Assembly: GCA_031275285.1 (NCBI GenBank) | Contig: JAISOY010000001.1 | Coordinates: 6,813 to 70,812, forward strand | Origin: Bacteroidales bacterium | GTDB taxonomy: Bacteria; Bacteroidota; Bacteroidia; Bacteroidales; UBA4181 | Length of the DNA: 64,000 nt | Direction of reading: 5' to 3' | Shown here: positions 6,209 to 28,095 of the stretch, one piece after another | How positions within the stretch are numbered: position 1 is the first letter of the stretch | How the letters are laid out: every line of letters begins with the position of its first letter | Position numbers and translations under genes: made by a program | Notes under the pieces: model-generated | Databases searched by the model: none | What the model was told of the DNA's origin: nothing | What the model saw: only the letters and a program-made list of their open reading frames with translations

Positions 6209-6216
6209 TATATTTT

Positions 6217-9163: not shown

Positions 9164-9938
9164 TTTCTTTCAGTTTAAATAAACATCCTTTATATTCTGA
9201 AGGTAGATTTAATTGATACTTATCTTTAAAGTAATAAACTGGCTCATATCCATATTGGTTGAAAAAATTCATGAATTTATGTTCACTAAAAATCCAACAT
9301 GGATAGCTTGCATTATAATAATTTTTGGGAACTTTTTGAATAGTGATCCTGTCAGACTGACTTTTCGTGAAACCAGTACGAGTTATGACGATGTATTTAA
9401 ATTTCTTTCCAAGAACATCGGATAATAAATCATAAGGACTTTCCAAATATTGTAATACGGAACCGAACAATACACCTTGAATTTCTTCTGTATTTTGAGA
9501 AATACAGTCATCAACCGACATGTGAAATTTCAAAATATCAGTTTCAAATTTTTTTTTCCCATATTCGACGAAATGAGGTTGTTCCACTACATTCCATCGG
9601 ATTCTCTCTAACTGGTCAAAAAATATTTTATTTTGGTAATACGCAGTACCCAGAGCACCACCAAAGTCAATAATATTCAGTTTACCTTTGTTTTGAGCTG
9701 CTATCCACATCAAAGAAAGTAACAACTCCCAAGGATATTGTTTTGCCTGTTTATTTGATGCATTCTTTAATTCTAACAGGGTTCTTTCGGCTTTTATGAG
9801 AATATTTTCCGCATCGTAACCGGTTGTGAGCCTACTTGCTTCGTCCCACGTTTTATAGTTTCCATACCAGCCACTGCCTCGAAAAAAGACAAATAACCTG
9901 GATGGTATATGATGAATAATGTGATATTTCATACTCAT
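9138..9938 (-). CDS. putative SAM-dependent methyltransferase (O-antigen-cluster type)
   Basis: 266 aa. Glycine-rich motif-I-like IIDFGGALGTAY. It resembles methyltransferases seen in LPS loci; the subfamily assignment is from memory only. Confidence 0.55.
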   Translation of the reverse strand: MSMKYHIIHHIPSRLFVFFRGSGWYGNYKTWDEASRLTTGYDAENILIKAERTLLELKNASNKQAKQYPWELLLSLMWIAAQNKGKLNIIDFGGALGTAYYQNKIFFDQLERIRWNVVEQPHFVEYGKKKFETDILKFHMSVDDCISQNTEEIQGVLFGSVLQYLESPYDLLSDVLGKKFKYIVITRTGFTKSQSDRITIQKVPKNYYNASYPCWIFSEHKFMNFFNQYGYEPVYYFKDKYQLNLPSEYKGCLFKLKENENDIVTG

Positions 9939-11125
9939 ATTACTGTATTTTTATCAAATTTTAATGTTCGTTGTACTATTTTATCATAACTAAGAAATTC
10001 CTCAGAAGTTTTTAACGCCCCTGCTTTCATTTTATTTAATAAATTTGGAGTATCAATTAATACTCTTATTTTCTCAGCTATATTTTCTGCATTAATTTCA
10101 TCTTCCTTTAAAATCATCATATTATTATTTTTGTTTAGATACGCTACCGGTTGATCTTTTAACTGTCCCACAATCAACGGTAATCCCATTCCAATTACTT
10201 GTTGCCATAAAATAGATTGACTTGCAGGAAAAACAGCAAAGTCAGAGGCATCCATATAGTCATACACTTCTTTACCACTTAACCATCCAGTAAAATAGAT
10301 TTGGTTAAATCCTTGACTCATTTTTTCTAACTTAATCTTATAGGTACTATCCTTACCTTGAGGTTCTCCTACTACGATTAAATGGAGACGAGGATCTGAC
10401 AGCATAATAAATGCTTCGATCAAAAAATGAGTCCTTTTCACTATATCTAATTTTCCACCAGTAAAAATCACAAAATCGCCATATGGAATATTGAGTTTTT
10501 CTCTGATTATATGACCATTATGCGCCATTTTAACTTCATTAACCATGTCAATATCGGCTCCTAATGGTAATACCTCCATTCGATCGTAGGGAACTTTATA
10601 TACATCATGTAAAAAAGTCAAGCTAGCTGGTACAACCGGATAGATTTGGTCGATATATTTAATAACGCTATGAAGAAATATTTTTCTTATAATTTTATGC
10701 AAAATATTTAAAGAAATCCAATTGTTTGCAGAATTACTATAATCAGCATGATAATCCATAATAATCTTAGTATTAGGATTTTTCTTTTTATATTTTATCG
10801 CTTCTCTCAAATTCAGATGTATGCTATGTGCAAAAATAATATCTGGTTTTTCAATATTCAATATCTTAGTAACACCTCCGAACTTACGAAGTTTATTAAA
10901 AACATTAAACAAATAGGGAAGTTTTATTATTTTCACGCCATCGATAATCTTTTCATTTTTAACAACGTTTCCGTTATATTTATCAGACATATAATCAAAT
11001 ACAGATTCAAATGTTGAAGCGATAATTGTAACATCATGACCATGTTTTTTATAATACTTTGATAGGAAATTTTCCTGATATTGTAAGGTATGATTATAAA
11101 AATCACATAACATTAGAATTTTCAT
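9935..11125 (-). CDS. glycosyltransferase family 4 (GT-B)
   Basis: 396 aa. MKILMLCDFY N-terminus and GT1/GT4-like C-half. 4-nt overlaps with both neighbours. Confidence 0.75.
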   Translation of the reverse strand: MKILMLCDFYNHTLQYQENFLSKYYKKHGHDVTIIASTFESVFDYMSDKYNGNVVKNEKIIDGVKIIKLPYLFNVFNKLRKFGGVTKILNIEKPDIIFAHSIHLNLREAIKYKKKNPNTKIIMDYHADYSNSANNWISLNILHKIIRKIFLHSVIKYIDQIYPVVPASLTFLHDVYKVPYDRMEVLPLGADIDMVNEVKMAHNGHIIREKLNIPYGDFVIFTGGKLDIVKRTHFLIEAFIMLSDPRLHLIVVGEPQGKDSTYKIKLEKMSQGFNQIYFTGWLSGKEVYDYMDASDFAVFPASQSILWQQVIGMGLPLIVGQLKDQPVAYLNKNNNMMILKEDEINAENIAEKIRVLIDTPNLLNKMKAGALKTSEEFLSYDKIVQRTLKFDKNTVI

Positions 11126-12459
11126 AGAATAGTATGAGAAATTTTATTTGAAAACAAAGGTTCTGAAAAATCGCAATTATTTTTTAACGAAAACATAGTG
11201 GCACTCAATATCCATAGTTCAAAATTATTGAATAGACTACCAGTAACTTGAGCCATCCAGAAAAAAAATACTAATAAACAGAAAAAAAATAAATAGTATG
11301 CAGATTCCCTTCTTAAAGAAGATATTTTTTTATATAAATTATACATAATTATAATAAAAAAGAATAGGCCCAAAAGTCCTAACGCCATCATTATTTCTAA
11401 AAAAATATTGTGAGGATAAGCCCCTCCACTATACTTAGATTCAGTTACAAATCTTTTACCTATAATAGGAGATGATTTAAACATCTCAAAAGCTTCTGAA
11501 TATAAATCAACTCTGGTCTCTTTTTTACCTGTCTGTGAATTTTCTTTCATTAATTTGAACCGATTAAAAATGCCTATTTCGATATTATTCACAGATATAT
11601 ATGATAAAACTAAAGTCCCGGAAATAAATATAATAAATAAAATGGTGAGAATTTTATTATAAAAATTGAATGTCTTTTTTGAATCCGAATAAGTAATAAA
11701 GGCGATTACCATAGTCGTTAAAATTGTTGATAATATAGGTCCTCTGGAGGTACTGATTATCAGATTAAATAATCCTATTATCAAAAAAAACCAAGCAGCA
11801 TTGATTATCAGTCGAGGGAATAGATGTTTGTATTTTACCAATACACAAAAACATGATAAAAAAAGACATCCTCCATATATGCCAAAACTAATTGGGTTAA
11901 GTATATCCAGATCTTTATATAAAAGACCCGCTCTCCTGATAAAAAAGCCTGAAGAGAATGACCAATTGTTCTGATAGAAATAACATAGTAATATTAAAAT
12001 ATTAACAATAATCAGCAAATAAAAACAACGCATTATTGTTTTTTTTACATCCGAAAATTTAAAAGCTATAAGTATTCCAATTACAGGGATTAAAATGGAA
12101 CCCAAGTAATAGGAATAAACATTTAACAGTCCGTAATATACATTAACCTTTACAATTAAAGTATCCCAGATTATTCTTAACAAATAAATAAATAAAAATA
12201 TTAGTAAAGGAGTTGAGGCTTTGCTTAAAGAATGAACTTTTGAAGATAACAGGATAATAATTACATATAACGATAAAAACAAACATATGCCTCTATAAAT
12301 TATACTAATCGGAGTGGACGGAACATTCAATAAAACAGACAATATTGCACATATTGGATAGCCAAAACAAAGTAAAACAAATACCCATGATATAATATTA
12401 CCTAAAAAAACGAATGATTTATTTTGATAGGTATCTGTATGATGGAAATTAGTTACCAT
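11122..12459 (-). CDS. wzy: O-antigen/capsule repeat-unit polymerase (Wzy-like, O-antigen ligase family membrane protein)
   Basis: 445 aa polytopic membrane protein (about 10-12 hydrophobic spans) with a large loop near residues 300-345. Located in the glycan operon. Confidence 0.7.
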   Translation of the reverse strand: MVTNFHHTDTYQNKSFVFLGNIISWVFVLLCFGYPICAILSVLLNVPSTPISIIYRGICLFLSLYVIIILLSSKVHSLSKASTPLLIFLFIYLLRIIWDTLIVKVNVYYGLLNVYSYYLGSILIPVIGILIAFKFSDVKKTIMRCFYLLIIVNILILLCYFYQNNWSFSSGFFIRRAGLLYKDLDILNPISFGIYGGCLFLSCFCVLVKYKHLFPRLIINAAWFFLIIGLFNLIISTSRGPILSTILTTMVIAFITYSDSKKTFNFYNKILTILFIIFISGTLVLSYISVNNIEIGIFNRFKLMKENSQTGKKETRVDLYSEAFEMFKSSPIIGKRFVTESKYSGGAYPHNIFLEIMMALGLLGLFFFIIIMYNLYKKISSLRRESAYYLFFFCLLVFFFWMAQVTGSLFNNFELWILSATMFSLKNNCDFSEPLFSNKISHTIL

Positions 12460-13792
12460 TATGTTTTTTTAGAAAATTACAATACAACTTTTTAAACCAT
12501 TTTCTTTTTCTTGTTACAGAATTATTATGCCACAAGATAGTAAAATTTCCACCAACTATTTTACATCTTTGATATAACTTTACAATCTGTCTATGGGCTT
12601 CTTTGATTGTATATTTCTTGTACCCAAATAAAGTCATATCCATTACAATAAGCGGACGTTCTTTAATCGTAAATTGTACATCATTTTTCAAATCATATGG
12701 ATGAAAGTCATAACATGTTCCACATCGAAACCCTTCCCTATCTGCATATCCAAGAGTAGAATCATATAATATTCCTGCTTTTTCTAAATTCCTGAATGTA
12801 GAATGAATATCAAAACGTAAATAATGCTGTCTCGCATATATAATAGATTTATTAGATGCTAACTCTATCTTTTGTTTCTCCAATGAATACAAGTTTTCAT
12901 CAGTTAAAGTTTCAAAACTTGCATGATATCCAATAATCATATTTATTTTATCGATCTGAAGAAAAACATCTCGAACCTGTGATTGATTTGGATCATATCC
13001 GCAATCATATTTATTAGGTACTGCACCCATAAAATAAAATTCAGATATAAGATTGTATTGATGAGATATGTTAAGCAATTCATTAATAGCTGTAATATAT
13101 GGGTCATTTGCTGGTCTATTAAAAGATCGAATATATTGAATAACAGATCTAAAAAAAACAAAAATATTTTTAGACAAATAGATATCTCCAAGAAGGGTTC
13201 TTATTGATTTTTTAAAACTGGAAAATCTTCTTACCTCATCAATATCATGAGATGGTATTATTGTACACTTCGGAATAACAAAAGTATTTTCCGGAAATAA
13301 TATTTTTAGATATTTTTGTAGTATTAAAGCATATTCGTCTACAATAGGATAATCGATGAAATTATATTTTGTTGCAATGCTATGTTTGCTTTCAAACCTG
13401 CCATATACATCCCGGTCTTGAATAAATGCTTCCTCACAACGTGAAAGCATAATAAATGATAGGGGTATAATATCTGCATATATAAATAATTCATTACCTA
13501 TTACTTCTGCAAAAGAAAAACCATCTTCGAGAGGAATTGGGATCATCCCCATACCATCAATAGTTGCAATTTTATTAAGCTTAAGCCCCCCAGTTATAAG
13601 AGACAAAATATCAGAACAATGTGAGATTTGAAATATTATTTTTTTTGTCCCAATGAGCGCTGATGCCTTTTTTCTATCTTCTGCGACTTCAATTAATACT
13701 TGATCCTGAAATTCAGGGCATGCAATCATTAATAAATGCTTAATTGTATATTTTATGGCATTTACAGTTAAATAGATATTTTCATTTTCCAT
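12449..13792 (-). CDS. hypothetical protein, possibly polysaccharide-deacetylase-like
   Basis: 447 aa, overlapping both neighbours so likely translationally coupled. The motifs SHDIDEV, GYHASFE and ILWHNN vaguely recall CE4-type deacetylases. The function call is weak. Confidence 0.5.
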   Translation of the reverse strand: MENENIYLTVNAIKYTIKHLLMIACPEFQDQVLIEVAEDRKKASALIGTKKIIFQISHCSDILSLITGGLKLNKIATIDGMGMIPIPLEDGFSFAEVIGNELFIYADIIPLSFIMLSRCEEAFIQDRDVYGRFESKHSIATKYNFIDYPIVDEYALILQKYLKILFPENTFVIPKCTIIPSHDIDEVRRFSSFKKSIRTLLGDIYLSKNIFVFFRSVIQYIRSFNRPANDPYITAINELLNISHQYNLISEFYFMGAVPNKYDCGYDPNQSQVRDVFLQIDKINMIIGYHASFETLTDENLYSLEKQKIELASNKSIIYARQHYLRFDIHSTFRNLEKAGILYDSTLGYADREGFRCGTCYDFHPYDLKNDVQFTIKERPLIVMDMTLFGYKKYTIKEAHRQIVKLYQRCKIVGGNFTILWHNNSVTRKRKWFKKLYCNFLKKHNGN

Positions 13793-14423
13793 TCACAAAA
13801 AAATTAATATCAATATCTTTTAGTAAAAAGGGATTTCCATGTCCACTATATACAATAATATTTTTATTATAAAATTTTGAAAAAACAAGATCCAAACTGT
13901 TTTTCAATTGATTTTTATTCCCCCCGGGTAATTTCGTGACTGTTTGGAAATCTTTTATTAAAAGATCTCCACAAAATAAATTATTATAAAAATAAAAAGA
14001 AATACTACCATCAGTATGTCCGGGTGTATTAAAAAAATCAATCATTACCCCATTCCACAATAATTCATTATTAATGGACTCTATAGTTATATCTGCAGGA
14101 CAGCATTTAAATCCGGATTGATTATAAAAAGCAGATAAATTTTTCTTTGCATCAATCATATGTTCACTACAAATTGCAGATGAAATAACTTTGCATGGAA
14201 ACAAATTTTTGAGTTGATTTACCCCCCATATATGATCAAAATGCTCATGTGTAAGTATAATATATTCCGGAGATATTTTTCTATCTTTGATGAACTTTAA
14301 AAGTTCATTGCAATATTCTGCTCCCGGATCTACAATAATACAATTAGCATTATTTTGAATATATAGAATAAAACAATTCGAATCAACAGGCGAATTTATA
14401 ATTTGTTTTACCTCAATTTTCAT
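13782..14423 (-). CDS. MBL-fold metallo-hydrolase (possible thioesterase of the acyl cassette)
   Basis: 213 aa with the canonical HxHxDH motif (THEHFDHIWG). Confidence 0.85.
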   Translation of the reverse strand: MKIEVKQIINSPVDSNCFILYIQNNANCIIVDPGAEYCNELLKFIKDRKISPEYIILTHEHFDHIWGVNQLKNLFPCKVISSAICSEHMIDAKKNLSAFYNQSGFKCCPADITIESINNELLWNGVMIDFFNTPGHTDGSISFYFYNNLFCGDLLIKDFQTVTKLPGGNKNQLKNSLDLVFSKFYNKNIIVYSGHGNPFLLKDIDINFFVNGK

Positions 14424-14427
14424 CAGA

Positions 14428-15183
14428 TCAGGCAGTAACGTTTATAGTCCTTCCTCCATCTACTGTTATTTGCTGACCCGTTATCCACCGGGATTTTTCA
14501 GATAAAAGAAATACAACAGCTTCAGCAATATCCTCCGGAAAACCAAGTCCCAAAGGGTAAGTAGCTTCCATTCTTTTCAAAACTTCTTCATTCTCATAAA
14601 TACTTTCTGTCATTTCTGTTTTTACTCCGCCGGGAAGAACAGAATTAACTCTGACATGAGGAGCTAACTCAACAGCCAAACAACGCATAAGTGAATCCAA
14701 AGCACCCTTAGATGCTCCATAAACACTAAGCGCCTTTGCACCCATGTTACTTATATTACTTGATATAAATACAATATTCTTCATAGCCAGGTTATTTATT
14801 TTCCTTTGCATCAGGGTTTTTATTATAATAACTGCCGATATGAAATTCGTATTTAATGTATTTGAGATATTATCAATTGTCACCATTTTTAACGGAAGCA
14901 TTTTCATATAACCGGCACAATGGACAAAATGGCTTATTCTGATCTGATTTTTTTCTATAAATTCAGATAAGGTTGATGCTATGTCGTTGATATTGTTTAA
15001 ATCAAATGTCCAGATTAAGATTTTCCTTTCTTTTCCACACATTTTTTCCGTAGATTCTAATCGTTCTTCGTTTCTTCCGTTCAGAATAATATTATATTCT
15101 TTTGACAAAATAGATGCCATAACCTTTCCTATTCCGGAAGAAGCTCCGGTTAACAATAAATAAGAATCCCTTTCATCTTCCAT
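14428..15183 (-). CDS. SDR-family oxidoreductase (3-oxoacyl-ACP reductase-like)
   Basis: 251 aa with TGASSGIGK and YGASK (YxxxK). Confidence 0.9.
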   Translation of the reverse strand: MEDERDSYLLLTGASSGIGKVMASILSKEYNIILNGRNEERLESTEKMCGKERKILIWTFDLNNINDIASTLSEFIEKNQIRISHFVHCAGYMKMLPLKMVTIDNISNTLNTNFISAVIIIKTLMQRKINNLAMKNIVFISSNISNMGAKALSVYGASKGALDSLMRCLAVELAPHVRVNSVLPGGVKTEMTESIYENEEVLKRMEATYPLGLGFPEDIAEAVVFLLSEKSRWITGQQITVDGGRTINVTA

Positions 15184-15201
15184 AATGATATGTTCTAATT
15201 A

Positions 15202-15963
15202 TTATTGTGCTGTAAATCCACCATCGATATTAAAAACAGCTCCAGTAACCCATTTACTGGCATCCGATAATAAATACGATATCGCATAAGCGATATCTTC
15301 CGGATCGCCAAGTCCTAAAGGATGTAATTTTTCCAAAATATCTGAATGGCTTTCATCAAACATTGGATTAATATCATCCGACATTTTTGTTTTAATAAAT
15401 CCCGGAGCGACACAATTGACACGTATCCCTTTTGATGCAAGCTCCATCGATAGAGATTTAGTAATACCAATGATCGCTGATTTACTCATCGCATACCCTA
15501 CATTTGCAGCAGAACCAACAATACCATATACTGATGAAACCAGAACAATGGAAGCCGTTCCTCCTGCATATACATTTCTGTTTATAAAAGTTTTAGCTAA
15601 TTCGATTGCCGAATATGTATTCAGATTATAGATTTCCTGACATTTTCTTTCATTAATTGACTTAAGAGGTGCAATATATGGCTTTCCTGCAAGATGAACC
15701 AATCCATTGAGTTTTCCAAAATCACATACTTTAGTAAGTACTTTATCTTTAATTTCAGAAGGAATACTTAAATCAACGATCAAATAATCATCGGTTGATG
15801 CACAAGCTTGTAGCGTTTCTTTTAGTCCATTTTCATTTATATCAACTAAAAGAAGCTTAGCTCCCATTTGAGACAAAAAAAGACTTGTTGCTCTCCCGAT
15901 TCCAGATGCAGCTCCTGTTATCAAAAATGTTTTCTCCCTAAGAGAGAATGGATTTATATCCAT
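15202..15963 (-). CDS. SDR-family oxidoreductase (FabG-like)
   Basis: 253 aa with TGAASGIGRA and YAMSK (YxxxK). Confidence 0.9.
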   Translation of the reverse strand: MDINPFSLREKTFLITGAASGIGRATSLFLSQMGAKLLLVDINENGLKETLQACASTDDYLIVDLSIPSEIKDKVLTKVCDFGKLNGLVHLAGKPYIAPLKSINERKCQEIYNLNTYSAIELAKTFINRNVYAGGTASIVLVSSVYGIVGSAANVGYAMSKSAIIGITKSLSMELASKGIRVNCVAPGFIKTKMSDDINPMFDESHSDILEKLHPLGLGDPEDIAYAISYLLSDASKWVTGAVFNIDGGFTAQ

Positions 15964-15975
15964 CGTTTTATCAAA

Positions 15976-16191
15976 TTACTTTTTACTAATTATCAGTTTC
16001 TTTAAATTACCAATTGTTTTTGCATCATTAATTTCAGCAGCAGAAAGAGTAACACTATAATTTTCATCTGCTAATGCAATAATTGAAAGAATTGTTAACG
16101 AATCCCAACAATCAAAGCCAGATAATTCATCATCTAATTCTACGGTATCAACTTCAAGAACTTCTGCCATATCTTTTTCAAAATTTTCCAT
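15976..16191 (-). CDS. acyl carrier protein
   Basis: 71 aa acidic protein with a DSL phosphopantetheine-serine motif (CWDSLTILSI). Confidence 0.8.
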   Translation of the reverse strand: MENFEKDMAEVLEVDTVELDDELSGFDCWDSLTILSIIALADENYSVTLSAAEINDAKTIGNLKKLIISKK

Positions 16192-16196
16192 AATGA

Positions 16197-17261
16197 TTAA
16201 TAATAAATGATTTCATTAAATTTTAAATTATTCATATCAAGTAAAAGCGATCCCCAGGTCAATCCGACACCAAATCCGGCTAAACATAATTTAAAGTTAT
16301 GTTTGGTCAGGTTTTCTCCCAAGTTATAACTAATATTTAGCGGAATTGTAACACCGCTCGAATTTCCAAAATTTTCTACGATATTACTGGGAATTTTATC
16401 ACGAGAGACACCTATCTTATCTGCTAATTTCTGCAGCATAAACCGATTAGGTTGATGAAACATGTAATAATCAATATCGTCCCTAGTCACATTTGCTTGA
16501 ACAAGAAGTGACTCAATCATCGGAGGTACTTCTTTCTGGACAAAATTAAATACTTCATCTCCTTTCATTACCAGATGATCTTTACTTCTAAGGTTACCAT
16601 TAATATCTTCTTCCAGAATCGCTGTTTTCGGAGATGATGGCAGTCGCGCACCTCCAGCAGGGATATTAAGAGCCATTGCACCTGCACCATTCATTTTTAT
16701 ATTTCCAAAAATAATATTCTCGTCATCAGAAATTTCAACAATAGTAATTGCTGCTGCATCACCGATTAACGGATTACTATTTCTATCCTTTTTCGATACC
16801 TTAGGACTTAACACATCAGCATTAAGCAGTACAACCTTTTTAATGGCTTCCAAATCCAATAACATAAAAGCTTGTATAAGGCCGAGAATATATCCTGCAC
16901 ACCCTTGGTTTATATCCAGACATATCATATCTTCCTTCAGTCCAAAATATCCTTGTATCAAATTACTGGTAGGGGGCATTATATAATCCCCTGATTGAGT
17001 AACCAACACAAGCGCATCAATATCTTCCTTTTCCAATTTTCCAACTTCAAAAAGATACGATAATCCATGTATGCAGAGATCAGAAGAACAGACTCCTTCT
17101 TCTACAATTCGTTTCTTATTATATCCCATAGCCATTTTTAATTTTAAGGATTTCGCAGTGGAAAAATTATAATTTCCCATTTCATCCTCAAAATAGACTT
17201 CCCTATCAGGGAGAATAGATAAGATTCCGGTTATTTTCTTATTTTGAAATTTAAAATCCAT
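16197..17261 (-). CDS. 3-oxoacyl-ACP synthase III (KAS III/FabH-like)
   Basis: 354 aa with the Cys-His-Asn triad contexts NQGCAGY, FHQPN and FGNSSGVT. Confidence 0.85.
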   Translation of the reverse strand: MDFKFQNKKITGILSILPDREVYFEDEMGNYNFSTAKSLKLKMAMGYNKKRIVEEGVCSSDLCIHGLSYLFEVGKLEKEDIDALVLVTQSGDYIMPPTSNLIQGYFGLKEDMICLDINQGCAGYILGLIQAFMLLDLEAIKKVVLLNADVLSPKVSKKDRNSNPLIGDAAAITIVEISDDENIIFGNIKMNGAGAMALNIPAGGARLPSSPKTAILEEDINGNLRSKDHLVMKGDEVFNFVQKEVPPMIESLLVQANVTRDDIDYYMFHQPNRFMLQKLADKIGVSRDKIPSNIVENFGNSSGVTIPLNISYNLGENLTKHNFKLCLAGFGVGLTWGSLLLDMNNLKFNEIIYY

Positions 17262-17263
17262 AA

Positions 17264-17494
17264 TTATATAACACCCTTTTTTCTTAATAAAGTAGCGATA
17301 CTTTCAATAGAAGAAAAATTATCAGGGATAATATCTATTCCATCAATAGAAATATCAAATGTTGTATCTAAGGAATTGACCAAATTTACAATATCAAATG
17401 AGTCCAACATTCCTTCTTCTATAAAATTAACATCTTCAGTAAAATCAAATTCTGGGCGAAGATCGGTTAAAATTGTTATTATTTTCTCTATCAT
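17264..17494 (-). CDS. acyl/peptidyl carrier protein (DltC-like)
   Basis: 76 aa with the GMLDSFDIVNLV serine motif. Adjacent to the adenylating enzyme cassette. Confidence 0.8.
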   Translation of the reverse strand: MIEKIITILTDLRPEFDFTEDVNFIEEGMLDSFDIVNLVNSLDTTFDISIDGIDIIPDNFSSIESIATLLRKKGVI

Positions 17495-17502
17495 ATGATT
17501 AA

Positions 17503-18291
17503 TTACATTATAAGTATTTCATCCATAATATTTTCAAATCGAAAGCCATAGTGTATATATCGCTTAATGGCATTTTCATTATCCTTTAAAACCCAAAATA
17601 ATTGCCGTTTCGAATTATTTCCTTTAAAAAAGAATTTTCTTAACAAAAGAGATCCAATTTTAATACCTCGACATTCTTTTGCTACAAACCAATAACGCAG
17701 ATATTGAGTAGCACCTGATATTTCATATGCGAGAAAACCTGCAATTCTATTGTTTTTCTTATATAGCAATAATGTCTTGTCTTCAATCCAATTATCAATC
17801 TCTTCTATGAATGGGATTTGCTCTGCCCTTTTATCAAAATTGTCATATAATAAAGATAATATGTCTTCAGCATCCGTTTTTTGTGCTTCAATAATTTCAT
17901 CACCAATGAATGAAGCTTCAAGGACTGTTTTTCTACTCATCCTTATTAAAGATTTGTACGGAGAAAACCCATATTCTAAAAAAGGTATTTTCAATCTTTC
18001 AATTGTTTCTTTATCTCCTCCCAAAATATCAATTGAATAACTACATTTATCTAAATACTTTACATCTCTAGATAAATCTTCTATAGAACCTGAGCAAAAG
18101 AAAAGGTGATAAAAGTCATCATTTTGTTTTAACAAAAAAAGTGTGTTTCCAAATGTTACTAATTTCAGCACTCTTTTTTCCACCCATAAATTGTGCTTTT
18201 TCATGTCAAGGAAAAAATTAGTGATAAAACCTTTAGATTTTACACCAGCGACAGCTTCTTGAATTTGATATATGTTTTCAACTAAAACCAT
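17503..18291 (-). CDS. GNAT-family acyltransferase (putative)
   Basis: 262 aa. The C-terminal half has a GNAT motif-A-like segment (ECRGIKIGSLLLRKF). Confidence 0.55.
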   Translation of the reverse strand: MVLVENIYQIQEAVAGVKSKGFITNFFLDMKKHNLWVEKRVLKLVTFGNTLFLLKQNDDFYHLFFCSGSIEDLSRDVKYLDKCSYSIDILGGDKETIERLKIPFLEYGFSPYKSLIRMSRKTVLEASFIGDEIIEAQKTDAEDILSLLYDNFDKRAEQIPFIEEIDNWIEDKTLLLYKKNNRIAGFLAYEISGATQYLRYWFVAKECRGIKIGSLLLRKFFFKGNNSKRQLFWVLKDNENAIKRYIHYGFRFENIMDEILIM

Positions 18292-18296
18292 ATAAA

Positions 18297-19823
18297 TTAT
18301 CCATTCACTATTTTAGTCAAAGATAGTCTATCTATTTTTCCATTCGTATTTCTGGGTAATTCATCCATTTTTAAATAAATGGTAGGAAGCATATATTTGG
18401 GTAAAACTGTAGTAATTTGCTTCCTGAACTCCGCTATAGATATTTCTTTTTCGGATTCATAAAAAAGAGTAATTTCTTTTTTTGCATAATTATATATTAC
18501 ACATCCATTTTTTGCTAACTTTAGTGTATTTACTATAACATGTTCAATTTCGCCCAACTCTATTCTATACCCTAAATGCTTGATTAAACTATCCTTACGA
18601 CCTTTAAAAATTATTTCACCTCTATTATTAGTACTTACAATATCACCAGTTCTATAAATTATTTCAGGATATGATCTATTCACTGGGTTCTGGACAAATG
18701 CAACTTTTGTTTTTTCAGGATTATTATAATATCCCATTGCAAGAGAAGTTCCCCTGACACACAATTCCCCTTCCTCCCCTTGAGATGCTAATTCTTCTTT
18801 TTCATTTAAAATAAGGATATCTGTATTTCTACATGGAAATCCAATAGGAATAGGTTCATCATCATTTATTTCCCTATTTGCAATAAAAAAAGTACAATCC
18901 AGTGTAATTTCTATTGGCCCATATAAATTAGTAAACTGGACATTTGACAATTGTTTTTTCCAATAATTAAATTGCTTAGTAGGAAATACTTCACCAGCAA
19001 ACCATACTTTTTTTAAATCAGGCAACTGAATTTTCGATAACAGATCCATGTTGGCAATATTTACCATGATAGTAGGTACCCAAAATAAAAAAGTAACCTT
19101 TTTTTCCTTTAATAAATCCAATATTTTTATAGGAAAAGCAGCAAAAGAATCAGGGATCAAAACAATTGTACTCCCTTTTGCCATTAACATACAAAGTTCA
19201 AAACTATAAATATCAAAAACCAAGGGAGAAAGAGAACCCATAATTTCATTATCGGAAAATTGAAATGTATCTTTTGCCCATTCTGTAAAATCAATAAAGC
19301 TTTTATGATTAAGTAGCACTCCTTTAGGAACACCTGTTGATCCAGAAGTATTTATGATACAATAAGGATCTGTATCTATTACAGAATCTCGTTTTATTTT
19401 TAAACGTTCATTTTTTGAATAAGAGTCATTATCAATATCATCAATATTGATGATATTGATGTTAGTGTTTATTCTTCTTAACTTTTCAATATTAAAAGAA
19501 TTTGTAATTATTGCAGCAGGTTGAATTAGTTCTAGTATATTATTGATCCGGATTTCCGGAGATTTTATATCTATATTCATATAAAAATTTGCACTATAGG
19601 TAATTGCAATATCAGCAACGACACTATCTACACTTTTAGGTAGGTAAACCGCAATAGGTTTATTGATTATATTTGAAAAAAAAGTATCTAAATGTAAAGC
19701 TAATGCTAAAGATCTTTTTTGTAGAGATAAAAAACTAACATTAAATTCACCATCTATAACGGCAATTTTAGATGGTTGCTTTTTAACCGTTTCTTCAAAA
19801 TATTCAATTATATTTATTTGCAT
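18297..19823 (-). CDS. adenylate-forming enzyme (stand-alone adenylation domain, DltA/amino-acid-adenylation-like)
   Basis: 508 aa with core motifs NTSGSTGVPKGV, YRTGD, GRKDSLIKHLGYRIELGEIE and NGKIDR. Confidence 0.9.
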   Translation of the reverse strand: MQINIIEYFEETVKKQPSKIAVIDGEFNVSFLSLQKRSLALALHLDTFFSNIINKPIAVYLPKSVDSVVADIAITYSANFYMNIDIKSPEIRINNILELIQPAAIITNSFNIEKLRRINTNINIINIDDIDNDSYSKNERLKIKRDSVIDTDPYCIINTSGSTGVPKGVLLNHKSFIDFTEWAKDTFQFSDNEIMGSLSPLVFDIYSFELCMLMAKGSTIVLIPDSFAAFPIKILDLLKEKKVTFLFWVPTIMVNIANMDLLSKIQLPDLKKVWFAGEVFPTKQFNYWKKQLSNVQFTNLYGPIEITLDCTFFIANREINDDEPIPIGFPCRNTDILILNEKEELASQGEEGELCVRGTSLAMGYYNNPEKTKVAFVQNPVNRSYPEIIYRTGDIVSTNNRGEIIFKGRKDSLIKHLGYRIELGEIEHVIVNTLKLAKNGCVIYNYAKKEITLFYESEKEISIAEFRKQITTVLPKYMLPTIYLKMDELPRNTNGKIDRLSLTKIVNG

Positions 19824-19829
19824 TTGGAA

Positions 19830-20750
19830 TTAATTGTTTTTCGTGAAATATTTCTTTAAAGGAACAGGTCGCAAATATACAACAATACCTCTTCTTCCAA
19901 GCTCAATAGTTTTATGTATAAAATATTTTGCATCATACACATTAACTGTCAAATTAGAAATTCGTTTTCTTATATATTTAGATTTATCAAAATATTTGCT
20001 GATCATCTTATTATGAGAACGATTTGTAAAATGATAGGAAAAATTATCGGAAGAGGTTAAATATTTCTGTTCATAAATTGTATTATCTTCTAATTTTATC
20101 TTTATTATTGTTTCTTTTTGAAAAAAAAGAGCAAAATAAGGCAATTCTGTTCTTAATATACTATCAGCACAATGCATTATCGTTCCTACAAAATACTTAC
20201 CTAGTCCGAATGTAAATACAAGAGCATTAAGTTCCGCCAACTTATAGTACGGTGATTTTTCATCCCAACAGCTAGTTGAAAACTGATGCTCATTTAAAAG
20301 GTAATCACTCATCGGACCTAAGGCACAAACAGAATGCCTGTTTATACTACGTTTTACATTAGGATAATTTCTGAAAGTTTCGGCAATTATTCCTGCAGCT
20401 GTGGGAGTTCCTTTGATACTAAAAACACTATCCGGTTTCCTTAATAATGGATATGCCGGCATTGCCAAAGTTCCCTCAGTTCCAATTTCTGTAAGTACTG
20501 CATTTATAAATTCATTTATTGTTCCTGTATAATTATAAAACTCATCCCATGAACTATGAATGAAAATAGTAGCTCCTTTTTTTAGTCCCATAGACTTCAT
20601 TAGTTCAATTAAATCATAGGTCGAATAGGTTTGTTTATATATTTTTTGTTCAACTTTTCTTTTAACATTCGTTTTGAAGGCCTCCCAAGAACGTACTTTC
20701 GTTCTTTTTTTTATCCAATACCATATCTTATGTTGTAATTTAAAAAACAT
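19830..20750 (-). CDS. AAC(3)-family-like N-acyltransferase
   Basis: 306 aa. LGLKKGATIFIHSS and GTEGTLAMPAYP resemble the aminoglycoside 3-N-acetyltransferase fold signature. Confidence 0.65.
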   Translation of the reverse strand: MFFKLQHKIWYWIKKRTKVRSWEAFKTNVKRKVEQKIYKQTYSTYDLIELMKSMGLKKGATIFIHSSWDEFYNYTGTINEFINAVLTEIGTEGTLAMPAYPLLRKPDSVFSIKGTPTAAGIIAETFRNYPNVKRSINRHSVCALGPMSDYLLNEHQFSTSCWDEKSPYYKLAELNALVFTFGLGKYFVGTIMHCADSILRTELPYFALFFQKETIIKIKLEDNTIYEQKYLTSSDNFSYHFTNRSHNKMISKYFDKSKYIRKRISNLTVNVYDAKYFIHKTIELGRRGIVVYLRPVPLKKYFTKNN

Positions 20751-20753: not shown

Positions 20754-22052
20754 TTATTTTTTTCCTTTTGCCAATCTATATGTAAGACCAATCTGAATAA
20801 GATAAGCAAGACTTCGTCCTATACAAAACAAAATCAGTGTGGCCTTAATATCGTCTAAAACCATACCTATTATTAATGATGTTAAAGTTAACAATAAAAA
20901 GAGACTCTGCCAAAATAAATCCAATTTTTGTTTTTCAGCAATAATAAAAATCCAACTCGTTGGCATACTAATAAAACTTATCATATACATCACACACAAT
21001 AATCTTGCATATTCTCCTGCAACATACCATTCTGCGCCAAAAATGAACGAAAAAAGAGAGGGCGCAATAATGAATAAAATAATAAATGGGATAATCACAA
21101 TCTTTAAAAGAGTAAGGGTTGTTTTTCTGTATATAGCAAGACAATTTCCTGTATTGTTATAATCATGAGTTGCTCTCTGCTTAAAAACATCTTTAAATGT
21201 ATTGCCTAAAAAGCTAAGAGGAACACCTAAAACTCTATCTGTTAGTGCAAACAAACCGACTTCATGAATACCAAATTCCATAGTAATAAAAAATATGGGC
21301 AACCGGCCGGCTAAAGTATTTAGAAATTGTCCTGGAATGTTATATTTTGCAAAATCCAAATATCTTCTAGAAAAATATTTCATTTTGCGTATTGTAACAT
21401 ATTTAAACAAATAGAGATCTTCCTTTAAAACTCTATAAATTGCCAATGATGATGAAATAAGTTGACCGATTATTTGTCCAAATATCAGACCTGAAGAGGT
21501 CTTTGTAAAACCAAACAGGAGAGATCCTCCTGTAATACCGCTTGTATTAGTGATTTTATTCTTACTTAATATAATAAAACTCTTTTTTCTTATGCACCAT
21601 TCATTAAAAACCAAGTATATTGTAGCCAAAAATGCGCTCATTGGAACTAACCACAACACATTTTGAAAATCTCCTCCATTGAGGATAGAAGAAAGAAATG
21701 AAGATATGGGTTTTTCAAAAATTAGAAATAAAAAAAGTAATATAAGAGAAAAAGATAAAGCCAATATACAACTAAGAGATAAAACATTTATGGCTTCTTG
21801 ATTTCTTTTTGGTAAAATAATTGCTAGTTCATATTTCCCCGAAATAAAAATCGTAATAATTGCAGTTATTGCCATAAAATTTTCATATACCCCAAATTCA
21901 TCCGGTGAAAAAAGTCTGGTTAATAACGGGGCACAGAGTATAGGTATTAATTGTGCAATGGCAGTACCACTCATTAGTGTTAGCAAGTTTTTCTTAAACT
22001 CACTCCCTTGTAGCACTTTATGAAAGAATTTATTAATTATATTTTTCTCCAC
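20754..22052 (-). CDS. wzx: Wzx-type oligosaccharide flippase (MOP superfamily)
   Basis: 432 aa, about 12 predicted hydrophobic helices, GTG start. Located in the glycan operon. Confidence 0.8.
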   Translation of the reverse strand: MEKNIINKFFHKVLQGSEFKKNLLTLMSGTAIAQLIPILCAPLLTRLFSPDEFGVYENFMAITAIITIFISGKYELAIILPKRNQEAINVLSLSCILALSFSLILLFLFLIFEKPISSFLSSILNGGDFQNVLWLVPMSAFLATIYLVFNEWCIRKKSFIILSKNKITNTSGITGGSLLFGFTKTSSGLIFGQIIGQLISSSLAIYRVLKEDLYLFKYVTIRKMKYFSRRYLDFAKYNIPGQFLNTLAGRLPIFFITMEFGIHEVGLFALTDRVLGVPLSFLGNTFKDVFKQRATHDYNNTGNCLAIYRKTTLTLLKIVIIPFIILFIIAPSLFSFIFGAEWYVAGEYARLLCVMYMISFISMPTSWIFIIAEKQKLDLFWQSLFLLLTLTSLIIGMVLDDIKATLILFCIGRSLAYLIQIGLTYRLAKGKK

Positions 22053-22106: not shown

Positions 22107-23066
22107 TTAAAACGATATCTTCTCCATCAATCTAATTCCAGAAAGTACATCCTCCTGACTCGGAAATTTCTCCCATTGTTTTTTTACAATATATTCATAC
22201 ATCTTATCATGTCCTTTACCATACTGGTGGTCAATGGTAAAATCCATATCCGGTTTTTCCATCTCCTCCACATCCCAAAAATCAATCCGGTTCAGATTGG
22301 TTCCGCTTAAACGAACAGTTCCTTTTTCACCAATGACTGTCAGTTCCGTCATAAAATTGGTACGATATACGCTTACCGTTGCATTTAATGCACCTATTGT
22401 TCCGCTTTCCAATTCACAGATGGCAGAAATGGTGTCATGGACTTCAAATTTACGTAAATCCCCACCTACGCCATAAGCATTTTTTATCTTTCCGAAAAGG
22501 AAATGGATCATATCCACATAATGACTGGCTTGTGTATAAAAAACACCTCCGTCATATGCTTTGGTACCATGCCAGTCGATGTTAAAATATTCATCATTCC
22601 GGTTCCAGAATATATTACATACAAACTGATAAATCTTGCCTAAACGGCCGGATTCGACCAGTTCTTTCATAAAAGCCACCAAAGGATTGTAACGATTCTG
22701 GAAGACCGGTAATAAGATTTTACCAGCTCTTTTTACTTTATCCAGCATTTCAAATACTTCCCGTGAAGTAAGGGAAATAGGTTTTTCACAAATGATATAA
22801 GGAATGTCCGTGGTCTCAGCTATTTCTATTACATGCCGGGGATGCATACCTGAAGGGGTTAATACAGCAACTATGTCAACATCTTTCAGTTGCTTATAAT
22901 CTGTAACATAAGGTACGGAAAGTTGTGAAGAAACCGCTTTGGCCTTTTCTTCATTTATATCGCAAATCTGTGTAATATCGATCCCGTCAACAACCTGAAC
23001 CGCTTCGATGTGTCGTTTAGATATTCTTCCGCAACCGACCAGTGCCAATCTTTTATTTTGTGTCAT
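22107..23066 (-). CDS. wbpB: Gfo/Idh/MocA oxidoreductase, WbpB-like UDP-GlcNAcA 3-dehydrogenase
   Basis: 319 aa. LALVGCGRISKRH Rossmann N-terminus with no signal peptide. Embedded with WbpA/D/E-like genes. Confidence 0.75.
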   Translation of the reverse strand: MTQNKRLALVGCGRISKRHIEAVQVVDGIDITQICDINEEKAKAVSSQLSVPYVTDYKQLKDVDIVAVLTPSGMHPRHVIEIAETTDIPYIICEKPISLTSREVFEMLDKVKRAGKILLPVFQNRYNPLVAFMKELVESGRLGKIYQFVCNIFWNRNDEYFNIDWHGTKAYDGGVFYTQASHYVDMIHFLFGKIKNAYGVGGDLRKFEVHDTISAICELESGTIGALNATVSVYRTNFMTELTVIGEKGTVRLSGTNLNRIDFWDVEEMEKPDMDFTIDHQYGKGHDKMYEYIVKKQWEKFPSQEDVLSGIRLMEKISF

Positions 23067-23072: not shown

Positions 23073-24371
23073 TTAAAGCTTATAAATGTTTTCTTCGTTT
23101 TGTGAATAAGCATTTTGTAAATCTACGATCATTTTAGCATGTTTACGGATCATCTCAAAATCATATGCCGAATGCTTCGTAGAGATCACTACGACATCTG
23201 CATCAGAAAGGTTTTCGGGAGATAATTCAATTGAAGAAAAAGAATTTCCTCCGCACGTCTTTATTTGTGAAATAAAAGGATCATTGTATGATACAACACC
23301 TCCTTTTTTAACCACTTCATCTATAATTTCCAATGCAGGGGACTCACGTTCATCATCAATATTCGGTTTGTAGGCTACTCCAAGGAAAAATACCTTACTC
23401 CCGTTAACAGGCTTTTTCTGTCTGTTCAACGCTGTATTTATTTTAATATACATATAATGAGGCATTCGCATATTGATATGTCCTGCCGTATGAATCATAC
23501 TCAGATCAAATTCATACATTTTGGCAATATGTTCCAAATAAAAGGGATCTAAAGGAATACAATGCCCTCCAATCCCAGGACCCGGATAAAAAGCCTGAAA
23601 ACCGAAAGGTTTGGTCTTGGCTGCTTCTATGACTTCCCAGATATTGATATCCATTTTTCCGGATAATAATGCCAGTTCATTAATCAAACTGATATTGATC
23701 AGCCGGTAAGTATTTTCAAGAATTTTCACCATTTCCGCTACGCGGGGAGAACTGACCGGATAGATATGATCAATGGCTTTGGAATAAATTTTCTTACCGA
23801 TTTCTAATCCTTCTGAAGTCATGGCTCCCAAAACCTTAGGCGTATTTTTGGTGTGGAAATTTTTATTCCCGGGATCTACCCTTTCCGGCGAATAGGCCAG
23901 CCAGAAATCTTTACCTACTTTCATCCCTGATTCCTTTTCAATAATAGGGAGCATCACGTTTTCGGTAGTTGTCGGATAAGTGGTACTTTCCAGACAAATG
24001 AATACTTCCCGTTTCATATTTTGTCCGATGCTGATACAAGCTGATTCGATATAACTCATATCCGGCTTTCTGAACCGGTCCAATGGAGTCGGAACACAGA
24101 TCAAAATAGCATCACATTGATTCAATTCGGAAAAATCAGTGGTCGCACGGAAATAGACTTTGTTGACGACTTCCTTCAATACGGCATCACGGATATCTTT
24201 TATATAATTTTCACCATGATTGACTTTATCTACCTTTGACTGAGATTTGTCAAACCCAATGACATGTACACCTGCTTCAGCAAATGCAACCGCCAAAGGT
24301 AATCCGACATACCCTAGTCCTATAACACCAATAATTTCCTGATTATTATCTATTTTCTCGTGTATATTCAT
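23073..24371 (-). CDS. wbpA: nucleotide-sugar 6-dehydrogenase, WbpA-like (UDP-GlcNAc 6-dehydrogenase)
   Basis: 432 aa. GVIGLGYVGLPLA NAD site and catalytic-Cys context GPGIGGHCIPLDP. Confidence 0.8.
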   Translation of the reverse strand: MNIHEKIDNNQEIIGVIGLGYVGLPLAVAFAEAGVHVIGFDKSQSKVDKVNHGENYIKDIRDAVLKEVVNKVYFRATTDFSELNQCDAILICVPTPLDRFRKPDMSYIESACISIGQNMKREVFICLESTTYPTTTENVMLPIIEKESGMKVGKDFWLAYSPERVDPGNKNFHTKNTPKVLGAMTSEGLEIGKKIYSKAIDHIYPVSSPRVAEMVKILENTYRLINISLINELALLSGKMDINIWEVIEAAKTKPFGFQAFYPGPGIGGHCIPLDPFYLEHIAKMYEFDLSMIHTAGHINMRMPHYMYIKINTALNRQKKPVNGSKVFFLGVAYKPNIDDERESPALEIIDEVVKKGGVVSYNDPFISQIKTCGGNSFSSIELSPENLSDADVVVISTKHSAYDFEMIRKHAKMIVDLQNAYSQNEENIYKL

Positions 24372-26094: not shown

Positions 26095-26142
26095 ATTTGT
26101 CAAATCATTATCCTGTTTATGTCATGCTTTGTTAAGACCCCG

Positions 26143-28092: not shown

Positions 28093-28095
28093 AAA

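Follow-up and report, generated by a model that had tools for sequence, protein, structure and literature searches.

The window analysed here is a 64,000-nucleotide stretch of a Bacteroidales genome (contig JAISOY010000001.1, positions 6,813 to 70,812), and the subject is a probable gene cassette for acyl-group assembly inside a glycan operon. The operon is long and occupies 665–26103 of the minus strand. Its G+C content is 32%, against 41% for the rest of the window (26104–64000). Nine consecutive minus-strand open reading frames (ORFs) run from 20750 down to 13782. A first-pass annotation had placed nine acyl-assembly genes here, and the ORF listing and the families assigned with Pfam and NCBIfam bear this out.

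In the direction of transcription, the first gene encodes an AAC(3)-fold Antibiotic_NAT protein of subfamily I (19830–20750; 306 aa; PF02522, E = 9.5e-26). The second encodes a stand-alone adenylation enzyme of the nonribosomal peptide synthetase (NRPS) type (18297–19823; 508 aa; AMP-binding), and the third a tandem-GNAT acetyltransferase (17503–18291; 262 aa; GNAT Pfam matches). Next are a carrier protein resembling DltC and peptidyl carrier proteins, here called carrier 1 (17264–17494; 76 aa; PP-binding, E = 1.5e-4), and a FabH-like condensing enzyme, a β-ketoacyl-carrier-protein synthase III (KAS III; 16197–17261; 354 aa; N- and C-terminal ACP_syn_III domains). Carrier 2 resembles acyl carrier proteins (ACPs) (15976–16191; 71 aa; PP-binding, E = 1.1e-5). 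It is followed by two FabG-like members of the short-chain dehydrogenase/reductase (SDR) family, the oxidoreductase SDR1 (15202–15963; 253 aa; adh_short_C2, E = 3.5e-48) and the ketoreductase SDR2 (14428–15183; 251 aa; adh_short_C2, E = 2.3e-44). The ninth gene encodes a small hydrolase of the metallo-β-lactamase (MBL) fold, similar to glyoxalase II/GloB (13782–14423; 213 aa; Lactamase_B, E = 1.9e-18).

The nine genes had been described as mostly overlapping, but they are separated by spacers of 6, 5, 8, 2, 5, 12, 18 and 4 nt, in order from 20750 to 13782. They had also been placed between wzx and wzy. All nine are indeed located there, but a tenth gene was overlooked. It encodes a VimE-like (DUF7033, CE4-like) deacetylase (12449–13792; PF23019, E = 1.8e-21) and overlaps the MBL gene and wzy by 11 nt each. 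Thus ten genes, from 20750 down to 12449, lie between the genes for the Wzx flippase (20754–22052; Polysacc_synt_3) and the Wzy polymerase (11122–12459; Wzy_C).

The motifs quoted in the first-pass annotation are all present: NTSGSTGVPKGV and NGKIDR, LDSF in carrier 1 and WDSL in carrier 2. The catalytic triad of KAS III is intact, with Cys in NQGCAG, His in FHQPN and Asn in FGNSS. The serines of both carriers and the triad are invariant in the 14–18 orthologues aligned (18 for the triad). Because none of the proteins reaches the cut-off of the AAC(3), DltA, FabH, FabG, GloB or VimE equivalog, they are named here by fold or family.

Distribution of the core cassette

A genome scan with KAS III found 18 loci encoding proteins 55–72% identical to it, in Bacteroidota, Neobacillus, Gastranaerophilales, Silanimonas, other Proteobacteria and Spirochaetota. 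KAS III orthologues are 55–76% identical over five phyla (Bacteroidota, Firmicutes, Proteobacteria, Spirochaetota and Gastranaerophilales). An identical KAS III protein is seen on a single other public contig, from run SRR14710916. The set used for comparison consists of about 35 related loci (numbered with the prefix L). The gene order is repeated in about 25 unrelated contigs, and this recurrence is far beyond chance.

Two nested units can be distinguished. The first is a core of eight genes, in the order adenylation enzyme, GNAT, carrier 1, KAS III, carrier 2, SDR, SDR and MBL. The second is a frame, made of the AAC(3)-like and VimE-like genes, with an exchangeable cassette inside. The nine genes taken together, which had been treated as one unit, are therefore not the natural unit. 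Neither is their combination unique: it recurs in full in Chryseobacterium vrystaatense. The full core is found in L002, L006, L028, L030, L031 and L115, and L003 has the same genes without the MBL gene.

The commonest architecture, type A, consists of the core with a PglD-like transferase and a DegT aminotransferase (L002, L006, L028, L030 and L031). In type B (L025, L026 and L008) there is one SDR gene, the Antibiotic_NAT gene adjoins an aminotransferase gene, and FdtA pairs are nearby. The core always comes with a sugar-type N-acyltransferase (PglD-like or AAC(3)-like) and with an enzyme that provides a sugar amine, either an aminotransferase or a deacetylase. Judged from these comparisons, the core is a conserved, mobile module of glycan loci.

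All of the about 35 related loci are glycan loci, with Wzx/Wzy, glycosyltransferases, sugar aminotransferases or Fnl-, Wbp- or Fdt-type genes. No lipid or secondary-metabolite cluster is seen among them. The assignment to glycan loci in the first-pass annotation is thus upheld, and the occurrence mainly outside such loci that it had considered was not observed. From the families only, one could imagine a block not directed to glycans, which makes a lipid, a siderophore-like or small metabolite, or a Dlt-like D-alanyl ester. An adenylation domain, carriers, KAS III, ketoreductases and an MBL-fold thioesterase are typical of secondary-metabolite clusters, and the adenylation enzyme and carrier 1 resemble DltA and DltC. 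However, besides the uniform glycan context and the constant presence of sugar-type enzymes, the block is packed with spacers of 2–18 nt between wzx and wzy. Family searches of the operon gave no match to DltB (MBOAT) or DltD among the 27 proteins scanned, and none to a condensation domain or a transporter. A product other than a glycan substituent is highly improbable.

Neither an assigned product nor a description of the cassette was found in the literature searched (a limited library), in agreement with the earlier statement that no product is assigned; the same search found no polysaccharide structure for any cassette-bearing organism.

Several relatives show local peculiarities. In L029, an inserted DDE transposase gene (12245–13675) separates the KAS III gene from that of carrier 2. 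The core of L029 is otherwise complete as far as the MBL gene, and it is probably inactivated. Neither a PglD-like nor a DegT gene comes after it in the available sequence. L007, from Neobacillus drentensis, contains a 4'-phosphopantetheinyl transferase gene (11097–11465) directly after the KAS III gene, which fits a need of the carriers for dedicated activation. The operon of the window contains no such gene. L026 (JGI 3300013138) has a compact type B cassette (4629–16475) beside GtrA, GT2 and YfhO/PMT_2 genes. This suggests that an acylated 3-amino sugar is delivered there via a polyprenyl-phosphate carrier to another polymer, outside a Wzy repeat unit.

Enzymes of the proposed acyl-group synthesis

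The cassette very probably serves to build, on carrier proteins, an N-acyl group for an amino sugar of the glycan. This can be proposed with more confidence than any particular chemistry. The adenylation enzyme scores 304.2 bits against TIGR01733, just under the cut-off of 317.4. It is not a member of the DltA equivalog (NF003417, 272 bits with a cut-off of 476; TIGR01734, 256 bits with a cut-off of 560). Its best matches in PDB are the adenylation domains of LgrA, GrsA and DltA. The equivalents of Asp235, which binds the amine, and of Lys517 are invariant in 21 aligned adenylation sequences (motifs FDIYSFE and NGKIDR). The ten Stachelhaus positions were mapped by motif. The same mapping, tried on LgrA module 2, gives DIANLCIIYK, which we take to be near the code for glycine. 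The pocket code of the window enzyme is DIFFWALLDK, and it is conserved in the closest clade. The enzyme is proposed to activate an amino acid and to load it onto carrier 1.

Carrier 1 has the motif G-M-L-D-S-F-D, which includes the DltC-like LDS, and shows weak AmcB and DltC matches. Carrier 2 has the ACP-like W-D-S-L motif. Carrier 1 is proposed to be the aminoacyl carrier, and carrier 2 the carrier of the malonyl extender and of the product.

KAS III matches both PF08545 and PF08541 and has the Cys-His-Asn triad, which places it within the KAS III family. It is not a housekeeping FabH (TIGR00747, 160.6 bits with a cut-off of 292.1; PRK12880, 200.8 bits with a cut-off of 436). The gene for carrier 1 lies immediately upstream of the KAS III gene of this clade in 27 of 27 independent loci, and of the 24 loci whose upstream sequence is long enough, 23 have the adenylation gene. 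Simple cassettes of FabD, carrier, KAS III and SDR, without adenylation enzyme or carrier 1, are also found (L020–L022, L112 and L113). Their KAS III proteins are only 30–35% identical to that of the window, which belongs to a distinct clade. The strict tie of this clade to carrier 1 favours a condensation of a primer bound to carrier 1 with malonyl-carrier 2. The loading of a starter on carrier 1 and its extension by KAS III with carrier 2 had been suggested before, and the linkage agrees with it. That the primer is an aminoacyl group is an attractive possibility, to which we give slightly less than an even chance.

The two SDRs keep their catalytic residues and score below the cut-off of 297.75 for FabG (TIGR01830, 151 bits for SDR1 and 125 bits for SDR2). 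SDR1 contains Ser-Tyr-Lys and a conserved Asp after strand β2, a signature of NAD-type enzymes. In SDR2, Gly-Arg is conserved after β2, a signature of the NADP type. Cassettes with a single SDR (L004, L008, L010, L025 and L026) keep the SDR2 type and are without SDR1. SDR2 is therefore likely to be the 3-ketoreductase, SDR1 being optional.

In the MBL-fold protein the metal ligands of the motifs HEHFDH, PGH and GHG are conserved in 11 sequences. It is not an orthologue of GloB (TIGR03413, 70 bits with a cut-off of 200.8), and its best PDB matches are 7ev5, 7l0b and 2xf4. Because it is a small GloB/YcbL-like protein with all metal ligands, it is probably a thioesterase, and a function in editing or release is proposed. 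The earlier suggestion of a releasing or editing hydrolase is in line with this.

The first-pass annotation had noted the GNAT protein and left it without a role. It is cassette-specific, and a function can now be proposed from the slot that it occupies. The Pfam matches of this protein span residues 143–256. Its AF2 model (pLDDT 96.7) shows a tandem GNAT fold, and the top matches in Foldseek are VipF, WecD, MshD and a glucosamine N-acetyltransferase. Among NCBIfam models, it has weak RimI and ArsN2 matches and no match to a family of the FemAB/VimA type. The family consists of 54 clusters and was found inside the cassette in seven of seven contig look-ups, also in loci without a VimE-like gene. 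In 17 loci, GNAT fills the slot between the adenylation gene and the carrier 1 gene, whereas L001 and L114 have an Fmt-like formyltransferase there. The formyltransferase of L001 scores 146 bits against the Met-tRNA formyltransferase model and 64 bits against the sugar formyltransferase model. The other cassette proteins are 52–76% identical to those of the window in L114 and 39–72% identical in L001, whose contig ends within the adenylation gene.

This exchange of GNAT for an Fmt-like enzyme points to N-capping of the amino-acid starter, and GNAT is proposed to acetylate the amino group of the starter. Type A loci contain one sugar aminotransferase and two N-acyltransferases (GNAT and the PglD-like protein), from which we infer that the slot enzyme caps the amine of the starter, not the amine of a sugar. 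Relatives in fold or sequence offer parallels: MshD, a fold neighbour of GNAT, acetylates a cysteinyl amine in a conjugate of cysteine with an amino sugar, and LgrA, the best PDB match of the adenylation enzyme, formylates carrier-bound valine.

A different use of the same enzymes has to be considered here. KAS III could work as FabH does, condensing acetyl-coenzyme A (acetyl-CoA) with malonyl-carrier 2 to acetoacetyl-carrier 2, which would be reduced to 3-hydroxybutanoyl-carrier 2, while the adenylation enzyme and carrier 1 supply an aminoacyl group. The two pieces would be joined as N-(3-hydroxybutanoyl)-aminoacyl or would go to two different amines. Acyl-CoA primers are the usual ones for KAS III enzymes, and simple cassettes of FabD, carrier, KAS III and SDR adjoin the same AAC(3)-like subfamily in L020 and L021. 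In L006, an extra set of carrier, SDR and a second type of KAS III (KAS III') is placed right after GNAT. Qui4N and Qui3N are known to bear N-[(R)-3-hydroxybutyryl]-L-alanyl and N-acetyl-alanyl substituents (PMC3210612). On the other hand, the exchange between GNAT and the Fmt-like enzyme implies an acetyl or formyl cap, not a hydroxybutanoyl one, the rest of the L114 cassette remaining 52–76% identical. The window-type KAS III clade never occurs without carrier 1 and shares the above 30–35% identity with the KAS III of the simple hydroxyacyl cassettes. In type A loci there is just a single sugar aminotransferase with a single terminal transferase, and no joining enzyme is evident if GNAT uses acetyl-CoA. 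We consider this two-piece synthesis unlikely, and prefer the condensation of a capped aminoacyl primer.

The extra carrier, SDR and KAS III' genes of L006 and L009 were also considered as an added elongation module. This idea was dropped because the additional carrier has the WDSL motif and the additional KAS III groups with those of the simple cassettes.

The AAC(3)-like/VimE-like frame and the probable acceptor sugar

The AAC(3)-like protein is a member of the PF02522 domain family (91 bits with a cut-off of 25; residues 64–277 aligned to profile positions 2–223 of 232). It remains at or below 60.4 bits against every AAC(3) resistance model. AAC_3_IV is the best of them (60.4 bits with a cut-off of 420), and AAC_3 gives 48.7 bits (cut-off 270); the cut-offs of these models are 270–675. 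The best PDB matches are YokD and AAC(3)-IVa. The protein is therefore designated by its fold, and there is no reason for a resistance-gene label.

Its subfamily contains 194 clusters at E ≤ 1e-20. Orthologues with 43–66% identity are encoded directly after Wzx, beside carrier/KAS III/SDR cassettes, in L020–L023, L112, L114 and L115, and Wzx adjoins the AAC(3)-like gene in L020, L021 and L112–L115. There are two Antibiotic_NAT subfamilies, and both accompany carrier/KAS III/SDR cassettes; elsewhere, a PglD-like transferase is found beside a sugar aminotransferase. This agrees with the earlier suggestion that the AAC(3)-like protein is the terminal N-acyltransferase.

The VimE-like protein has a sole NCBIfam match, to NF053580 (172.9 bits with a cut-off of 440; residues 86–442 aligned), and is not assigned to the VimE equivalog. 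Residues H182, D183, D185, H290, R321, H323 and H422, which are candidates for catalysis, are invariant in 39 homologues. A genome scan with this protein found one distant locus, L024 (32% identity), without the cassette. The closest homologues were found by protein search and then traced to their contigs, and all of them have the same frame. The VimE-like gene follows the acyl cassette in L001, L112, L113, L114 and L115.

In the window, L114 and L115, the order is Wbp genes, Wzx, AAC(3)-like, acyl cassette, VimE-like, Wzy and GT4, a glycosyltransferase (9935–11125; Glycos_transf_1). L114 encodes WbpA, WbpB, WbpD, Wzx, the AAC(3)-like protein (64% identical to that of the window), adenylation enzyme (70%), formyltransferase, carrier 1, KAS III (76%), carrier 2, two SDRs, MBL, the VimE-like protein (51%), a 430-aa protein without family match in the position of Wzy, and GT4 (50%). 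In L115, the order VimE-like, Wzy and GT4 is kept, with GT4 48% identical.

L112 and L113 have the same frame with a different cassette inside. L112 contains a WbpB remnant (87%), Wzx (65%), the AAC(3)-like gene (66%), genes for a carrier, SDR, KAS III', a glyoxalase-fold protein and others, and the VimE-like gene (56%). L113 contains WbpE/D/B, Wzx, an Antibiotic_NAT gene, a cassette with a Rieske oxygenase gene and two KAS III genes, and the VimE-like gene (49%). Because the frame is constant and the cassette differs between loci, the AAC(3)-like and VimE-like genes appear to bracket an exchangeable acyl-synthesis cassette.

The cassette of L113 (3222–11335) encodes a ferredoxin-reductase-like protein, a PglD-like transferase, a carrier, two KAS III proteins, an SDR and the Rieske oxygenase. 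This implies another, probably hydroxylated, acyl group.

The complete ten-gene arrangement of the window is present in the cultured Chryseobacterium vrystaatense, in the region 27.4–48.3 kb of contig FQVE01000008.1 from assembly GCA_900129105.1. It is preceded there by Wza/Wzc and WbpA/E/D/B and followed by Wzy and GT4. Gene by gene, the proteins are 35–63% identical to the ten of the window.

The Wbp-like genes of the window lie upstream of wzx and encode WbpB-like (22107–23066), WbpA-like (23073–24371), WbpD-like (24392–24970) and WbpE-like (24970–26103) proteins. They are proposed to serve a UDP-2,3-diacetamido-2,3-dideoxy-uronic acid. L113, L114 and L115 likewise have Wbp-like genes ahead of those for Wzx and the AAC(3)-like protein, so that VimE-like and Wbp genes are associated in these genomes as well. 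Since Wbp-, Fdt- and Fnl-type genes are all present in the operon, the repeat unit probably contains a 2,3-diamino uronic acid, a 3-amino-3,6-dideoxyhexose and L-FucNAc. In Porphyromonas gingivalis, removal of the N-2 acetyl by VimE has been proposed to prepare the Wbp product for the addition of serine by VimA (PMC7468200). By analogy, the AAC(3)-fold enzyme may acylate, from carrier 2, the amine exposed by the VimE-like enzyme, and we regard this as reasonably probable. The acceptor had earlier been sought in an amine made directly by the WbpE-like or FdtB-like aminotransferase. This is probably not the case, and an amine freed by the VimE-like enzyme is more likely.

The same acyl chemistry could be directed to another sugar of the operon. 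The genes downstream of wzy include an FdtA/FdtB-like group (7232–9163) of two FdtA-like cupins and an FdtB-like aminotransferase, and the acceptor might be the resulting 3-amino-3,6-dideoxyhexose. The VimE-like enzyme would then leave a zwitterionic uronic acid or serve another acyltransferase. Consistent with this, no FdtC-like acetyltransferase gene is located beside the Fdt genes in the window, Antibiotic_NAT subfamily II adjoins an aminotransferase in the Fdt-type loci L026, L025 and L008, and FdtA pairs also occur in the subfamily I loci L020, L021 and L112. However, in the window and L112–L115 the gene of subfamily I, the type of the window, invariably lies between Wzx and the cassette, at whose other end the VimE-like gene stands. 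Wbp genes are upstream in the window, L113, L114 and L115, and the WbpB remnant (87%) is at the contig start of L112. No FdtA pair is present in 21 kb of L113 or L115, and L114 retains only weak remnants (a 49-aa FdtA match and a 94-aa ORF 33% identical to the second cupin). Moreover, a 343-aa protein encoded after the aminotransferase gene in the window, with a 51% identical homologue in L114, could modify the Fdt sugar. The Fdt sugar as acceptor is about as unlikely as the two-piece synthesis, and the amine of the Wbp-derived uronic acid is preferred.

Taken together, the ten genes (20750–12449) might exchange the N-acetyl group on one sugar of the repeat unit for a larger acyl group built on carrier proteins, an interpretation that we favour by a small degree. 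The Wbp-like enzymes would make UDP-2,3-diacetamido-2,3-dideoxy-uronic acid, and the VimE-like deacetylase would take off one acetyl, on N-2 if P. gingivalis VimE is a guide. The adenylation enzyme would activate a small amino acid and load it on carrier 1, where the tandem GNAT would acetylate its amino group. KAS III would then condense the N-capped aminoacyl group of carrier 1 with malonyl-carrier 2 to a 4-acylamino-3-oxoacyl thioester. The 3-oxo group would be reduced by SDR2, the NADPH-type enzyme, and SDR1, the NAD-type enzyme that is optional in relatives, may perform a second, unspecified redox step. Finally, the AAC(3)-fold enzyme would move the finished chain from carrier 2 to the freed amine of the sugar, and the MBL-fold enzyme might act as an editing or release thioesterase.

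It can be speculated further that the cassette is a hybrid of discrete NRPS-type and type II fatty-acid enzymes, in which KAS III takes its primer from an N-capped aminoacyl carrier and the acyl group made is statine-like (4-acylamino-3-hydroxy). The AAC(3)-fold enzyme would be a carrier-dependent transferase, and the acetyl group would be removed and a custom acyl group added within a frame whose cassettes are swapped to vary the surface antigen. As a whole this combination is a tentative proposal, with clearly less than an even chance. To our knowledge, no statine-like acyl substituent has been reported so far on a bacterial glycan. The mechanism proposed in the first-pass annotation is largely supported by these comparisons, and it is refined on three points: the tenth gene, the role of GNAT and the acceptor.

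Several observations weigh against this pathway. The code DIFFWALLDK agrees with no specificity code known to us. No malonyl transferase (FabD) for the loading of carrier 2 is encoded in the cassette. L009 and L015 have carrier 1 and the window-type KAS III with no adenylation gene in the available sequence (L015 is a contig of 3.7 kb). The carrier-bound aminoacyl primer is deduced from gene linkage alone, acyl-CoA being usual. In Muriicola-type loci (L005, L011 and L012), the slot of GNAT is empty and no SDR is present; a free 4-amino-3-oxo thioester might cyclise. GNAT could also act on a sugar amine, since its fold matches WecD, a nucleotide-sugar N-acetyltransferase, too. The substrate of the VimE-like protein and the N-2 position are assumed by analogy, with a score far below the cut-off (173 versus 440 bits). 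Finally, the Fdt-derived 3-amino-3,6-dideoxyhexose could be the acceptor, as the other Antibiotic_NAT subfamily co-occurs with Fdt genes in L008, L025 and L026.

Known systems and neighbouring genes

Surface sugars owe dominant antigenic and phage-receptor determinants to N-acyl groups other than acetyl, the genes for which are mostly unassigned. In Vibrio cholerae O1, rfbK–rfbO encode an ACP, an acyl-activating ligase, redox enzymes and an N-acyltransferase, and tetronate is attached to perosamine. The system of V. cholerae O1 is without KAS III, an amino-acid-type adenylation domain, a second carrier and a deacetylase, and its families and its product are different from those of the window. 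In the AHBA side chain of butirosin (BtrI/J/K/O/V/H/G), an amino-acid-derived acyl group is built on a discrete carrier with its amine protected and is moved to the amine of an amino sugar. Pactamycin synthesis (PtmS/PtmI/PtmK) begins with a discrete adenylating enzyme that charges an ACP with an amino-acid-like starter, which a ketosynthase extends with malonyl. Both are antibiotics of actinomycetes or Bacillus, with other families for loading (ATP-grasp in Btr), protecting and transferring, and they are compared with the window here at the level of generic domains. AAC(3) enzymes and YokD share the fold, PF02522 and a conserved His region with the AAC(3)-like protein and N-acylate an amine on an amino sugar or aminocyclitol. 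In contrast to them, the window protein belongs to glycan loci with carrier cassettes beside it.

Among published loci there is a close likeness to the O-antigen locus of Flavobacterium psychrophilum, in which the R-group genes wfpC–wfpG encode an ACP, KAS, ketoreductase and a PglD-like transferase predicted to make a 3,5-dihydroxyhexanoyl group on bacillosamine (Qui2NAc4N) (PMC6519341). As in the window, this is a Wzx/Wzy locus of Bacteroidota with a dedicated carrier, KAS-type enzymes, a FabG-like reductase and a sugar N-acyltransferase predicted to draw on the carrier. The R-group genes vary between serotypes in the way that the cassette of the window varies between loci. F. psychrophilum is without an adenylation enzyme, a second, DltC-like carrier, a GNAT or formyltransferase, an MBL protein and a deacetylase, whereas the window has the adenylation enzyme, second carrier, GNAT, MBL and VimE-like protein. 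Its transferase is PglD-like, its acceptor is bacillosamine and its product is nitrogen-free, unlike what is proposed for the window.

The Wbp/Vim systems of P. gingivalis and Tannerella forsythia (WbpABED, VimE and VimA; PMC7468200) are similar in another respect: a 2,3-diacetamido uronic acid is made by Wbp enzymes, and deacetylation is proposed before addition of an amino-acid-derived acyl group. There, plain seryl or glycyl is added by VimA, a FemAB-like GNAT, whereas a carrier thioester donor and an AAC(3)-fold transferase are proposed for the window. No VimA/FemAB-type protein is seen among the family matches of the operon proteins scanned. Malyl and 3-hydroxybutyryl are examples of the non-acetyl groups that have been documented as acyl substituents of 2,3-diamino uronic acids (PMC3210612).

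The Wzx/Wzy locus of the window thus encodes a carrier, a condensing enzyme, a ketoreductase and a proposed N-acyltransferase for a sugar. This arrangement recurs in about 35 loci, and its general idea is already known from O-antigen loci. What is new in comparison with known systems, according to the predicted functions, is the NRPS-type adenylation enzyme and DltC-like carrier feeding KAS III, the exchangeable acetyl/formyl cap, the AAC(3)-fold transferase, and the deacetylase/transferase frame. The cassette spans at least five phyla, always in glycan loci and with no product known. If the proposed pathway is right, an aminoacyl-primed KAS III route joins the known means of glycan decoration, and AAC(3)-fold proteins have a physiological role beyond antibiotic resistance. 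The Vim logic of P. gingivalis, to deacetylate and then re-acylate, would be extended to many Bacteroidota, and the AAC(3)-like/VimE-like frame with its exchangeable cassettes could allow serotype diversity to be predicted from sequence. The full arrangement in a cultured Chryseobacterium makes the model directly testable.

The remaining genes downstream of wzy encode FnlA/B/C-like proteins (for L-FucNAc), a WcaI-like glycosyltransferase and an epimerase. Asparagine-synthase-like amidotransferase genes (WbpS-like) are found near the cassette in L001 (7610–9496) and L029 (5834–7864), and they suggest that the uronic acid is amidated in some relatives. Upstream of the operon, a PAP2 gene at 26291 is transcribed divergently from it. 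No UpxY-type antiterminator was found in the family-searched stretch 26291–30853, which contains PAP2, GFO/IDH and MutS2 genes, and a tRNA scan found no tRNA gene. The MutS2 protein is at most about 53% identical to that of any species representative, with all of the best matches in Bacteroidales, so that the host is a member of this order distant from all of these representatives. Between 12 and 27 kb, sigma-70 promoter-like sites are not in excess (73 versus 79 ± 9 in shuffled sequences; the model does not cover Bacteroidota promoters), and terminator-like sites are in about twofold excess (16 versus 7.4 ± 2.9).

The 343-aa protein mentioned above is encoded at 6217–7248, directly downstream of the FdtB-like aminotransferase gene, and has no Pfam, NCBIfam or PDB sequence match. 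Its homologue in L114 (17907–18944) is likewise located directly after a DegT aminotransferase gene. It may be an undescribed amino-sugar-modifying enzyme. The two FdtA-type cupins of the window (138 and 140 aa) are encoded in tandem at 8332–9163 with an 8-nt overlap. The tandem pair is kept in at least six other loci (L008, L020, L021, L025, L026 and L112), with 54–63% identity. A TIGR04325 (LIC12133-type) methyltransferase gene (9138–9938) lies between the GT4 gene and the FdtA pair, and L112 has a different methyltransferase gene beside its Fdt genes. These neighbours suggest that the 3-amino sugar is methylated.

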